From IMG/VR virus record IMGVR_UViG_3300037483_000582, positions 1-39,057 of that record: DNA of 39,057 nt. One strand, given 5' to 3'. The translations under genes were made by a program, and so were the position numbers. The notes beneath the pieces are model-generated. The model had not been told where the DNA came from. It was given only the letters and a program-made list of their open reading frames with translations, and did no database searches. This document shows positions 23,455 to 28,023 of the stretch, piece after piece. Numbering within the stretch: the first letter of the stretch is position 1; each line of letters opens with the position of its first letter. The stretch comes from a virus (Duplodnaviria > Caudoviricetes).

Positions 23455-23717
23455 ACTTCTATGAAGCATGGCTGGTAATGCGCGATGGTAAAAGATGTAA
23501 GATTATTGAGCGTCCACTCCAGATTTTTTGGCTTGAAGAATTGAAGTGCGATAAGCCCTTTTATCTAGATAAAGCCAAAATGGTTTATTTATCTAATGAA
23601 CATGGCTGGCAATTAAAAGTTGTTCATAGAGATGTGTCTTATATGGTATCGGATGTTTGGTGTGATGAGGCGATGATTGATGCTTTTATGGGATTTAACT
23701 GGGAGATTGTTGAATGA
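23451..23717 (+). CDS. DUF2829/Tad2-like protein, copy 1
   Basis: MNFYEAWLVMRDGK...NWEIVE. Confidence 0.65.
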   Translation: MNFYEAWLVMRDGKRCKIIERPLQIFWLEELKCDKPFYLDKAKMVYLSNEHGWQLKVVHRDVSYMVSDVWCDEAMIDAFMGFNWEIVE

Positions 23718-24598
23718 ATGAATTTGAAATGAACTCTAAAATTGCAAAGCGTGTTTTTACTGGATTAATCTGCTTCATGTTGCTCTTTATAGCATGGGGA
23801 ATGAAGCCTTGGTATATTGTACAACCCGGAGAAACTGCTATTCAATTGCAATTCGGTAAGCCAAAGAGAGTAATCAATGAACCTGGTATTTATCTAAGGA
23901 CTCCCCTTATTGATAAGATTGTGTACATAAATAATAGAATTTGCAGAACATCTATTGAAACGCGCTCATTATCTAAAGACTTACAAACGGTAGATATAGG
24001 GGCAGTATTAAATTACAGAATAAACAAAGGGTATGAGATCTTTAAAAGTGTAGGTTCGGATTTTGAGACCATTATTATTAATCCATTTGTCCAGGAATCT
24101 CTTAAAGCTGTTGTGGCCAAGTTTACGGCTGAAGACCTTATACAGCAACGGCACAAAGCTTGTGATTGGGTTAATAATGAGCTGAAAGAGCGGTTGGCAT
24201 TACACAGTATAGTACTTATTGATTTCAACTTTATTCATCTGGATTTTACCAAAGACTTTATCCATGCAGTAGAACAAAAACAAATAGCTGAACAAGCAGC
24301 AAAAACAGTGCGTAATCTTACGGAGAAGGTAAAAGAAGAATCAGCGCAAGAACGCCTGAAATCAGATGCCCTAGCTTATGCATATATTACTGACGCAAAG
24401 GCCAAGGCCGAAGCTGTGCGAGTACGTGCCGATGCAGAGGCATATGCTCTTAAGGCAAAGCGTGAGTCTATTACGGCTAATCTGATTACTCTTAAGAAGG
24501 TAGAGGCACTTACTCATGCAGTTGAGAAGTGGAATGGTCAACTACCGCGCATTGTTACTGGAAGTAATCCATTTCTCGAAATAACTGACGGGGTTTAA
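23714..24598 (+). CDS. SPFH/prohibitin (band 7) membrane protein
   Basis: N-terminal TM; SLSKDLQTV, LKAVVAKFTAEDLI..R, AVEQKQIAEQ, EKWNGQLP. Confidence 0.92.
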   Translation: MNEFEMNSKIAKRVFTGLICFMLLFIAWGMKPWYIVQPGETAIQLQFGKPKRVINEPGIYLRTPLIDKIVYINNRICRTSIETRSLSKDLQTVDIGAVLNYRINKGYEIFKSVGSDFETIIINPFVQESLKAVVAKFTAEDLIQQRHKACDWVNNELKERLALHSIVLIDFNFIHLDFTKDFIHAVEQKQIAEQAAKTVRNLTEKVKEESAQERLKSDALAYAYITDAKAKAEAVRVRADAEAYALKAKRESITANLITLKKVEALTHAVEKWNGQLPRIVTGSNPFLEITDGV

Positions 24599-26070: not shown

Positions 26071-26098
26071 TTGCCCTTTATGGGGATTAATTTATACT
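26071..26098 (+). promoter_or_regulatory. Promoter for the DIP1984-like gene and ncRNA cluster
   Basis: TTGCCC-N16-TATACT; TCTTGCCCTTTATGGG also at 28140. Confidence 0.6.
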
Positions 26099-26122
26099 AA
26101 AGTTGGTCAAAGAAAGGCAAGC

Positions 26123-26638
26123 ATGAAAATCATAGAAGCACTAAAGAAAATAAAAGATCTAAACAAAAAAGCGGATGATCTTAAATTAAAGATAGCGACT
26201 TATTGCGCTGACTTGGATTGTGAGACGCCGACATATCCCGATCAAAAGCGTCAAGTAGCCGAATGGCTGCAAGCTCACGGCGATGTCGTTAAAGAAATCC
26301 TTCGCCTTCACTACTGCATACAAAAGACTAATATCATGACTCAAGTCTCTATTCTCCTGGGAGACAAGAGCGTGACAAAGTCTATATCTGAATGGATTCT
26401 GCGACGCCGTACCCTTGCATCGTTGCAGCAATCGGCTTGGAAGGCGTTGACTGATAAGAATCTTAAAGAGTCCTATGCTAATCAGTTGACGCCTAACAGT
26501 CCCCAGGCAATCATTAAGCGTAGATTATATTATGATCCGATTGAGCGTGACCGCATGATAGAACTTTATCGTTCAGAGCCCGCGATAGTTGACGCTACGC
26601 TTGAGGTTATTAACGCAACGACAGAACTTATTGAGTAG
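26123..26638 (+). CDS. DIP1984-family-like long helical protein
   Basis: MKIIEAL..., IQKTN..T, SISEWI.RR, YDP.E.D, C-terminal VDATLEVINATTELIE match the recalled MKLAEAL...I..TN...lD..iq..N..TEL.E pattern. Confidence 0.6.
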   Translation: MKIIEALKKIKDLNKKADDLKLKIATYCADLDCETPTYPDQKRQVAEWLQAHGDVVKEILRLHYCIQKTNIMTQVSILLGDKSVTKSISEWILRRRTLASLQQSAWKALTDKNLKESYANQLTPNSPQAIIKRRLYYDPIERDRMIELYRSEPAIVDATLEVINATTELIE

Positions 26639-26644
26639 GCTAGG

Positions 26645-26699
26645 CGGACCGCATGCCTCCCCGTCCTACCGATCGGGAGTTTAAAGCGGCGGTCTTGCC
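26645..26699 (+). ncRNA. Structured element 1
   Basis: GGACCGC/GCGGTCT outer stem with inner CTCCC/GGGAG. Confidence 0.45.
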
Positions 26700-26707
26700 G
26701 GTATAAA

Positions 26708-26772
26708 TTGGGGTCCTTGGTTTTTGTATCCTTCTAGGTAGTACTTAACCGACATGCAACACGGGGCCCCAA
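26708..26772 (+). ncRNA. Structured element 2
   Basis: TTGGGGTCC/GGGCCCCAA outer stem, TTGGTT/AACCGA inner stem. Confidence 0.45.
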
Positions 26773-26783
26773 AAACTTGAAAT

Positions 26784-26861
26784 CTCAATTAGATCAGCAT
26801 TGGTGAGGCTGGGGGCTTTGCGGCTCTGTAATACTTGCGGTTCGACTCCGCCTGATTGAGC
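26784..26861 (+). tRNA. Atypical tRNA-like element (anticodon unclear, TTG in loop)
   Basis: 8-bp acceptor CTCAATTA/TGATTGAG, T arm GCGG-TTCGACT-CCGC, D-like CAGC-ATTGGTGAG-GCTG; non-canonical anticodon arm, no CCA. Confidence 0.5.
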
Positions 26862-26877
26862 TTTCTTTCTTTGAAAT

Positions 26878-27212
26878 GTAAGCCGATGAAGAGACATAAA
26901 AACCGGTAATTGTATCTTCTGTAGGAAGTTAAGCTACATAAACATTAGCTCAGTTGGTTAGAGCACTACCTGAGGACGGTGGAAGTCGCAAGTTCGAGTC
27001 TTGCATGTTACATTAGGATTGTTAATCCTGCCAAAACACAGAATAAAGTTAGCAAGTATCAAGATTCAAGATTTTAAGGTTTAATTATAATAAGTCTCAC
27101 GTATCATGAATCAAGAACGTACCCCGAAGCGTAATTGCTCGGGAATGACCTAAATAAGTTTTTTATACAGTTTTAAGCGGATCTTCTTAGGGTTCCTCTT
27201 TAGGCGGCTTTC
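26878..27212 (+). ncRNA. ~330-nt structured ncRNA candidate
   Basis: Ends pair (AAGCCG/CGGCTT, AAGAG/CTCTT); contains a tRNA-like domain, hairpins and a periodic tract; no coherent ORF. Confidence 0.65.
26941..27009 (+). tRNA. tRNA-like domain embedded in the ncRNA (pseudo-tRNA/mimic)
   Basis: TA-GCTC-AGTTGGTTA-GAGC D arm; CTACC-TGAGGAC-GGTGG; GCAAG-TTCGAGT-CTTGC T arm; only 5-bp acceptor, no U33, no CCA. Confidence 0.7.
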
Positions 27213-27216
27213 AATT

Positions 27217-28023
27217 ATGAAATTTATAGATCTTTTTGCAGGAATTGGCGGCTTTAGGCTGGCGGCTGAATCATTTGGCCTTAAGTGTGTATTCAGCTCT
27301 GAAATAGACAAATACGCTTGCGATACATACGAGGCTAATTTCGGCGAGCGCCCAAGCGGCGATATAACAAAGATAGATGAACGCAATATACCCGCACATG
27401 ACATGATCTTTGCGGGCTTTCCCTGTCAGTCATTCTCGGTAGCCGGTAAGCGCAAGGGCACCGATGATCCACGGGGCCAGATGTTCTTTGAGATCTTGCG
27501 TATTGCAGGGGGTCATTCAACGCCAATACTTGTTCTTGAGAATGTTCCAGGTCTATTGTCACATAATGGTGGCGCAACATTTAATAGGTTCTTGCATCTT
27601 TTAGATCTTGGTGGCTATAATGTCTATTATAAGGTTCTCAATGCTGCTGATTATGGGCTACCACAACGTCGTAAGCGTCTTTTTATGGTGTGTTATGCTA
27701 GACATATAAGTAAACCCTATACGTTCCCCGAGCCAATACCATTAACAAAAACATTGGGCGACATCTTAGAAACCAATGTTACAAGAGATATTGCCAATAC
27801 TGTTAGAGTCGGTGGTCGCGGGTCGCCTATTGGCAGCAAGCAAAACTGGGACGGATACTATGTTGGCAATATAATACATCGCCTTACCCCAAGAGAATGC
27901 GCTAGGCTACAGGGCTTCCCCGATAGCTTTAAGATTCCCGTAAGCGATGCCCAAGCATACAAGCAATTTGGCAACAGTGTTGCAATTTATGCGGTAAAAG
28001 CAATTATTGATAAGATATTATGA
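27217..28023 (+). CDS. C5 cytosine DNA methyltransferase (orphan)
   Basis: FAGIGG, GFPCQSFS, LENV, PQRRKR, RLTPRECARLQGFPD, YKQFGNSV. Confidence 0.97.
   Translation: MKFIDLFAGIGGFRLAAESFGLKCVFSSEIDKYACDTYEANFGERPSGDITKIDERNIPAHDMIFAGFPCQSFSVAGKRKGTDDPRGQMFFEILRIAGGHSTPILVLENVPGLLSHNGGATFNRFLHLLDLGGYNVYYKVLNAADYGLPQRRKRLFMVCYARHISKPYTFPEPIPLTKTLGDILETNVTRDIANTVRVGGRGSPIGSKQNWDGYYVGNIIHRLTPRECARLQGFPDSFKIPVSDAQAYKQFGNSVAIYAVKAIIDKIL

Follow-up and report, generated by a model that had tools for sequence, protein, structure and literature searches.

A gene for a DIP1984-fold protein and a conserved RNA with a periodic tract travel as one unit: comparative support for a putative two-component ribonucleoprotein

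In a phage genome of 39,057 nt, which was analysed over its full length (the window), the gene of a small helical protein is followed by a gap that carries no further gene, and the question arises whether protein and gap belong together and which function they may fulfil. The 39-kb record is complete with direct terminal repeats and harbors genes for a terminase, a P22-like portal, an N4-gp56-type capsid, an SPFH protein and a dcm methylase; among genome bins, a 39-kb contig with the label Babeliales is its nearest relative (61%). The SPFH/band-7 gene (23714-24598) is located near the locus and was found to recur in just five of the loci compared below (also in L086, there 3' of the gene). A preliminary description had assumed a dedicated promoter, a DIP1984-like protein and a cluster of structured RNAs, on one of which the protein was proposed to oligomerise as a two-component ribonucleoprotein (RNP). 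Gene calling bore out the 171-aa ORF (26123..26638, plus strand), and the absence of a coherent gene from the gap was confirmed by zero forward-strand ORFs of at least 50 aa. As for the promoter, a putative sigma70-like site (TTGCCC-16-TATACT, 26071..26098, plus strand) with a 9/12 match does exist; it is weak, however, being one of seven such sites, as compared to 3.2 +/- 1.8 in shuffles.

The 171-aa protein was predicted to consist of a long helical hairpin, a beta-hairpin and a C-terminal helix, with the AlphaFold model being confident (pLDDT 93). Its top solved-structure match was 3KDQ, an entry holding four chains, as identified by Foldseek (E 6.9e-4, probability 1.0) and likewise seen by VIA (Z 12.7, 149 aligned, rmsd 8.4; next match Z 8.2), and the canonical DIP1984 alignment matches the same entry with E 6e-45. 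The earlier assignment to the DIP1984 family thus holds for the fold, which is shared with 3KDQ over most of the chain, but not for the family cut-offs, as the protein scored 29.5 bits (E 7e-7) with the NF038048 model of the DIP1984 family (threshold 70 bits) and 19.2 bits with PF20935 (DUF6847; gathering threshold 27 bits); some of its close homologues carry a precomputed PF20935 match. A profile match of 89.9% to the DIP1984 family was obtained as well, and the identity to the family is 17-19%. As judged from its modelled structure, the protein is a divergent member of the DIP1984 fold that stands outside the curated family. Among 627 candidates, 557 homologues were identified, and 364 cluster representatives match the protein at E <=0.001. 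Lysine or arginine occupies 18 alignment columns in at least 90% of 51 homologues, 17 of which are Lys/Arg also in the 171-aa protein. Conserved residues include W91, R94 and R95 as well as R134 and R142. The folds of TRAP, HutP, ToxN and TROVE are absent among the fold matches listed for it, while a weak likeness to ESCRT-III CHMP chains (Z 7.3-7.9) corresponds to the background given by helical proteins. No PADLOC match was obtained, no nuclease fold was found, and searches of Pfam, NCBIfam and PADLOC revealed no toxin match and no membership in ToxN, CptN or TenpN. A scan of viral contigs with the single protein returned one locus, an alignment being needed for more, and tblastn of annotated phages with the protein returned none.

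For the comparison of genomic surroundings 170 loci were fetched, to which the phage's own locus was added and from which duplicates and two loci without stop codon were removed, yielding 150 loci. The sequences downstream of the collected homologues were found to share a conserved closing stem and a periodic tract, as had been anticipated for an RNA partner. Sixty-six of the 150 loci served as seed for a model of the RNA 3' module, by which the module was identified at 136/150 loci and at 112 of the 114 unique loci having at least 900 nt downstream, with the AAG tract being visible by eye in the two loci that were missed; on reversed loci, which served as control, 0 matches were obtained. Both RNA modules were placed in 118 loci. 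In 110 of these the RNA lies downstream of the gene, starting within 30 nt of the stop codon (76), at 31-300 nt (24) or beyond 300 nt (10), and in the remaining 8/118 it lies upstream. The reverse approach, a pattern scan which started from the RNA, identified 40 loci, 28 of them on contigs already present in the protein-first set, and nine of the 12 new ones carry the protein as well. Altogether the protein gene was found within 2.5 kb in 37 of the 40 loci, the exceptions being a genuine RNA cut off by the end of its contig (L226) and two chance matches (L229, L242), so that among the informative loci (37/37) a full RNA without the protein was never found. The conserved RNA of ~330 nt hence travels with the protein gene as one unit. 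A conserved third gene was considered and rejected, since neighbours are not kept across the 150 loci: no neighbouring gene family is common to more than 12 of them, the two commonest being terminase and portal. A location in or near tRNA regions was observed for 19/118 loci, and likewise in T4-like phages. In one locus (L088) an ORF which by eye resembles an HNH/NUMOD homing endonuclease resides between gene and RNA, the latter being 800 nt off. A homologue of 35% identity was found in a Promethearchaeota bin (L170), where an AAG tract is present and the RNA core is unmatched by the models.

Within the gap of the phage locus itself, three elements on the plus strand precede the conserved RNA. 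Both stem-loops that had been described are present: stem-loop 1 (26643..26699; folding z -3.6) is specific to this locus as judged by nhmmer, and so far as nhmmer is concerned stem-loop 2 (26708..26772; z -1.9) has no match at other loci, a look-alike having been noted by eye in L116. The tRNA-like element (26784..26860) was also recovered as a degenerate, locus-specific structure with a 9-bp acceptor-like stem and a T-loop (folding z -1.5), for which ARAGORN remained silent and the Rfam tRNA-Sec model gave 23.9 bits (cut-off 47); it possesses no normal anticodon arm and resembles tRNA-Sec weakly. As nhmmer gave zero matches for all three upstream elements at the other 149 loci, they were rejected as conserved parts. 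What had been termed a cluster of structured RNAs therefore reduces to one conserved RNA, with the remaining elements being locus-specific extras.

This conserved structured RNA of ~330 nt (26880..27210, plus strand) is closed by helix P1 (26880-85/27205-10). For its characterization 107 RNAs were aligned, after 11 of the 118 had been dropped due to doubtful ends, truncation or near-duplication; their mean identity amounts to 49% (maximum 88%) and the length ranges from 250 to 437 nt. Folding of the single sequence is unremarkable (z -0.8), and the case for structure consequently rests on comparison. The 18 best APC-corrected G-test pairs are all helical and fall into P1, P2, P5 and P3 plus one isolated pair that alternates between G-C and C-G, and eight pairs (five in P1, one in P2 and two in P5) score higher than any pair in 40 tree-based null alignments. 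The pairing of the RNA ends (AAGCCG with CGGCTT, i.e., P1) is thus backed by covariation, and so is the AAGAG/CTCTT helix, the full form of which is P2 (TGAAGAG 26887-93 with CTCTTTA 27196-202). The segment 26887..26902 comprises the P2 5' strand, the isolated covarying pair C26895-G27192 and a conserved AUAAAAA, which is unpaired. A helix of ATAAAAA with TTTTTAT, as suggested earlier, does not hold true, since ATAAAAA occurs in 73/107 RNAs and TTTTTAT in the partner region of 4/107. The actual helix is P4 (AATTGTAT 26908-15 with ATACAGTT 27165-72), which retains the TGTAT/ATACA core of the alternative pairing AAAAC+TGTAT with ATACA+GTTTT but not the rest of it. P4 and P3 (26903-05/27178-80), whose 5' strands form the segment 26903..26915, cross P5 in a predicted pseudoknot; the opposing 3' region (27123..27192) is composed of a hairpin (27123-43), a conserved GAAUGA, P5 (27149-53/27187-91), AAGUU and the 3' strands of P4 and P3. 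P3 pairs fail the strict tree-based null and P4 aligns poorly. Duplexes with the own partner strand average -13.1 as compared to -8.2 kcal/mol for swapped partners in the case of P3+P4 and -9.8 as compared to -5.9 kcal/mol in the case of P5 (n=107 each), while own-partner duplexes lie within the best 5% for only 46/107 (P3+P4) and 50/107 (P5) RNAs; a swap average for P3 alone was set aside as an artefact of unpairable fragments. The RNA core is therefore predicted to be pseudoknotted, with a certainty that falls short of that for P1, P2 and P5. Near-invariant stretches are AGA(G/C)AUAAAAA, GAA, AAGUU, G(G/C)UUCC and GGG. Covariance-model searches of the phage locus, eight related and 15 distant loci identified no Rfam family but tRNA, and the models of GOLLD, ROOL, OLE and YrlA gave nothing above gathering in the same set, so that neither a lack of conserved structure nor membership in a known family other than tRNA, both of which would have spoken against the RNP, was seen.

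Between the outer helices resides a periodic tract (27046..27115, plus strand), the first units of which are AAG at 27046, 27054, 27061, 27068 and 27076, followed by AAT at 27083, AAG at 27092, ACG at 27099, ATG at 27106 and AAG at 27113. The layout of five AAG, a degenerate linker and four AAG with 7-8-nt spacing is nearly universal: 89/107 RNAs possess nine or ten units (36 and 53, respectively), the modal gaps are 7, 7, 7, 8, 7, 9, 8, 7 and 8 nt, and unit 6 is degenerate and in nine-unit RNAs mostly absorbed into a linker of ~16 nt. With a weight matrix trained on the 107 RNAs and applied equally to shuffles, the score of 106/107 RNAs surpasses that of every one of 321 shuffles. The tract has no covarying partner, and hairpin inserts, present in several loci, are found at its linker alone. 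If the tract were bound by a closed oligomer of fixed size, a constant number of units, a constant pitch and a single crossover point open to inserts would be expected.

A second tRNA-like module, missed by the preliminary description, is embedded in the conserved RNA (26939..27012, plus strand), where ARAGORN identifies a tRNA-Pro(agg) and the Rfam tRNA model gives 41 bits; G replaces U33 and CCA is lacking. Such a module is optional, variable in its anticodon and sometimes circularly permuted. ARAGORN detects a tRNA within 44/107 RNAs, with 27 anticodon labels (undefined and stop included), and motif searches in the 107 RNAs assigned the order D arm then T arm to 37, T then D to 10 and both orders to one, with a T arm only in 19, a D arm only in one and neither arm in 39. 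In the permuted T-then-D modules the acceptor is closed by a short loop; such elbows, in which the looped acceptor leads from the T arm to the D arm, were seen in L018, L025, L038, L064, L068, L077, L106, L137, L159 and L165, and by eye in L210. A CCA 3' of the module occurs in 8/38. A canonical anticodon loop, a conserved identity and a mature acceptor end, as expected of a functional tRNA, were not found for the embedded module. As the permuted forms would be unchargeable, it is the elbow that appears to be kept and not decoding, and as 39/107 RNAs are without any tRNA arm, a role as tRNA decoy cannot be general.

TTGAAAT indeed precedes both the upstream tRNA-like element and the long RNA (sites at 26777 and 26871), as had been noted. 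The second site is part of a boxA-like TCTTTGAAA (26868..26876, plus strand), the sole such site in the 39-kb genome, while the first one is without the preceding TCT. At 18/106 loci TCTTTGA(A/C)A occurs no further than 40 nt from P1, with 0.2 being expected and 0 found on the reverse strand, and the shorter TTGA(A/C)A accompanies 22/44 RNAs that are set apart from the gene, 4/56 abutting and 0/7 upstream RNAs. The boxA consensus of B. subtilis, which is bound by NusB, is AUGAUCUUUGAAA (PMC13753749), and a Legionella CRISPR boxA reads GTTCTTTAAAA (PMC7862264); a match to the boxA consensus lies upstream of the untranslated RNA. The motif at the long RNA is therefore likely a boxA antitermination signal, which would shield the long untranslated transcript from Rho. 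As a general processing site TTGAAAT was rejected, since it is missing from most abutting RNAs.

The question whether the arrangement extends beyond the clade of the 171-aa protein was approached with the canonical DIP1984 genes, which occur in 4/301, 14/201 and 3/201 sampled genomes (one unpublished genome of the second tally was left out of the analysis) and in 371 plasmid records, 342 of them from Acinetobacter. The regions 3' of 23 such genes contain GGTAG in 13 and GGG(T/C)GGG..GGG in 14 cases. In the 20 loci with an ACTACC-type anchor, three of the 23 being left out as motif or anchor is lacking, YAC/CAY peaks were identified at lags 7, 14-15 and 21-22 (lag-7 z 10-13, relative to mononucleotide shuffles and for a small sample of partly related genomes), and an AAG periodicity is absent from the same 20 loci. 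A candidate conserved RNA, distinct from that of the phage, may be described for these regions as GGTAG...GCGRRYAC...YAC tract...ACTACC...GAGGGTGGG..GGGG (L174-L196, L202, L204 and L212-L214), for which no Rfam match exists. On an 8.7-kb Acinetobacter plasmid (L201:1198-1900) a DIP1984 gene labelled 'septicolysin' is followed by a gene-free gap of 320 nt with the ACTACC anchor. This toxin label is without support in the fold. No viral contig was matched with the canonical DIP1984 protein as query, and the Pfam model gave a weak match in one of three named phages only.

Fold matches in BFVD led to phrog_1491, annotated as 'tail fiber' and present in 736 phage records, T5 included. Its members, among them T5.085 and proteins of T4-like Acinetobacter phages and Bacillus Herelleviridae, comprise about 190-215 aa and are connected via profiles to a bridge set (97%) and to 3KDQ (E 4.6e-6); directly, the link to the clade of the 171-aa protein is weak (52%, E 1.4e-4), so that the bridge set is needed. 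Most of the downstream gaps fold with their ends paired, and an A-N-A-G peak at lag 7 was found in seven and then six phrog_1491 loci (z 19 and 6, as compared to 1.7 in the upstream control; again mononucleotide shuffles and few, partly related genomes). T5.085 is followed by an unannotated gap of ~360 nt (about 43496-43140, minus strand, NC_005859), which a 20-bp stem closes. Within this segment (L220:2492-3495, gene and gap together) the putative helix-closed RNA comprises ~355 nt with about ten AAG/AAC units by eye. A stable RNA of 719 nt, rnaX, is annotated 1.6 kb beyond this gap, and abundant lncRNAs of 528 and 543 nt were described for phage K (PMC11598898 and PMC10383478). The 'tail fiber' label fits neither fold nor context. 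As read from the sequences, the layout of a protein gene and an RNA with a predicted periodic tract recurs in three divergent protein clades, with the triplet differing in one.

Comparative data thus lend strong support to the idea of a two-component RNP, namely the two-way linkage of gene and RNA, the location of the RNA upstream as well as downstream of the gene, the covarying core, the tract of fixed count and the recurrence in three clades. The protein probably binds the conserved RNA, and an RNP of fixed stoichiometry that acts in trans is the best explanation, which we consider fairly probable. The suggested mechanism assumes that the RNA is transcribed and released as a discrete species, aided by boxA, and that the protein assembles into a closed oligomer in which each subunit would take up a single AAG from the tract with its 7-8-nt spacing. 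The ring would wrap the RNA, whereby the conserved core and the optional tRNA elbow would stay exposed and act in trans. Two rings of 5+5 or 6+6 subunits, crossed at the linker, are a tentative proposal with somewhat less than an even chance. In the conflict of phage and host over RNA and translation such an RNP would most likely serve as a protected decoy, a decoy or anti-defence role in itself being a possibility that we regard as doubtful. Taking bacterial chromosomes, Acinetobacter plasmids and T5, T4-like and Herelleviridae phages together, over which DIP1984/DUF6847/phrog_1491 extends, the entire superfamily might constitute an unrecognised class of two-component RNPs, consisting of a ring, about ten heptad-spaced triplets, a clade-specific code (AAG, YAC) and a displayed pseudoknotted core with swappable tRNA elbows, acting on both sides of the phage-host conflict; for this generalization the chances appear evenly balanced.

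Among other explanations, an effector restrained by its RNA in the manner of type III toxin-antitoxin systems survives best and is still unlikely. Here the RNA would be the lid on a harmful helical oligomer, and its loss, e.g., by a rival's nuclease, would lead to cell arrest. The obligate two-part linkage, the repeated RNA units, the frequency of canonical members on Acinetobacter plasmids (342/371 plasmid records) and the weak CHMP likeness (Z 7.3-7.9) agree with this, but the CHMP scores stay within the helical-protein background, neither a nuclease fold nor a family match exists, the gene is carried by strictly lytic phages (T5, T4-like, Herelleviridae), and the units are 3-nt motifs in one closed RNA instead of 35-nt pseudoknot repeats. 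Cis feedback as in TRAP or HutP, by which a ring bound to triplets of its own transcript would control translation, termination or decay of its own or the next gene, is quite improbable: it shares the logic of ring and triplets, the P1 3' strand AGGCGG (within 27201-27219) may double as ribosome-binding site of dcm (27217, 7 nt past P1) and eight RNAs are located upstream of the gene, yet the RNA is downstream in 110/118 loci, an ORF start is found at most 15 nt from P1 in 14/99 only, the upstream RNAs mostly leave a separate ribosome-binding site outside P1, neighbours vary, and attenuation needs neither invariant core nucleotides nor tRNA inserts. That the RNA acts alone, be it as ribozyme or by GOLLD/ROOL-like self-assembly, with the protein as chaperone or linked otherwise, would explain the invariant junction nucleotides and the predicted pseudoknot and finds a parallel in tRNAs occurring in the GOLLD linker (PMC12286853); it is very improbable, given that at the informative loci the full RNA never goes without the protein (37/37), that the tract is without covarying partner and that the triplet varies by protein clade. 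A decayed tRNA cluster with chance pairings, to which the two tRNA-like elements in the gap and the MFE z of -0.8 might point, has next to no chance and is refuted for the long RNA, since the 39 RNAs lacking tRNA arms retain covariation, tract and linkage, and may still hold for the element 26784-26860.

If the preferred reading of an RNP acting in trans is true, a first function, RNA binding, would be assigned to a widespread family with a solved yet unexplained structure, two labels ('septicolysin' and 'tail fiber') would be corrected, and a new class of large structured RNAs, missing from Rfam, would be added; the presence of the pair in coliphage T5 would give experimental access in E. coli K-12. 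In the literature, searched at abstract level, no description of the protein-RNA pair was found, and in the literature searched no RNA partner of the DIP1984 family is described. The motif could be contained, without a name, in the candidate lists of large surveys on structured RNAs of phages. Type III toxin-antitoxin systems (ToxIN, AbiQ) are likewise two-part systems of a protein and a repeated RNA, with ToxI consisting of 35-nt pseudoknot repeats, whereas the phage pair is without toxin family, nuclease fold or tandem 35-nt repeats. Ro60/Rsr with its Y RNA (YrlA) resembles the phage pair in gene layout, a protein gene lying beside its cognate RNA with a tRNA-like domain, and a weak YrlA match was obtained in L064 (30 bits, cut-off 69); the phage pair differs in having no TROVE protein, an optional tRNA domain and a periodic tract. 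GOLLD and ROOL are likewise large, structured RNAs of phages and lie near tRNA islands; tRNAs are sometimes located within the GOLLD linker, and no protein partner is known for ROOL (PMC12286853). In contrast to these, the RNA described here is smaller (250-437 nt), has no Rfam match and always comes with the protein gene. As to the works-like model, the likeness to TRAP and HutP consists in an oligomer that would read one purine-rich triplet per site on an evenly spaced tract. TRAP and HutP are ring proteins of Bacillus which bind NAG triplets with a period of about 5 nt, as compared to 7-8 nt in the phage tract; no sequence match and, among those listed for the 171-aa protein, no fold match connects them, and their target is the leader of regulated operons whereas that of the phage protein would be a dedicated adjacent RNA. 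Of the relatives within the fold, phrog_1491 is a remote homologue with, likewise, a gene-free gap, a helix-closed RNA and a 7-nt AAG-type tract, differing by its longer protein (about 190-215 aa) and another RNA core, and the DIP1984 family (NF038048, PF20935, 3KDQ) shares the fold and, downstream of its canonical genes, a periodic element, which consists of YAC units and comes with a different RNA core where the phage locus has AAG units. This suggests a modular RNA-binding ring which would read one triplet per subunit with a specificity that is particular to each clade.
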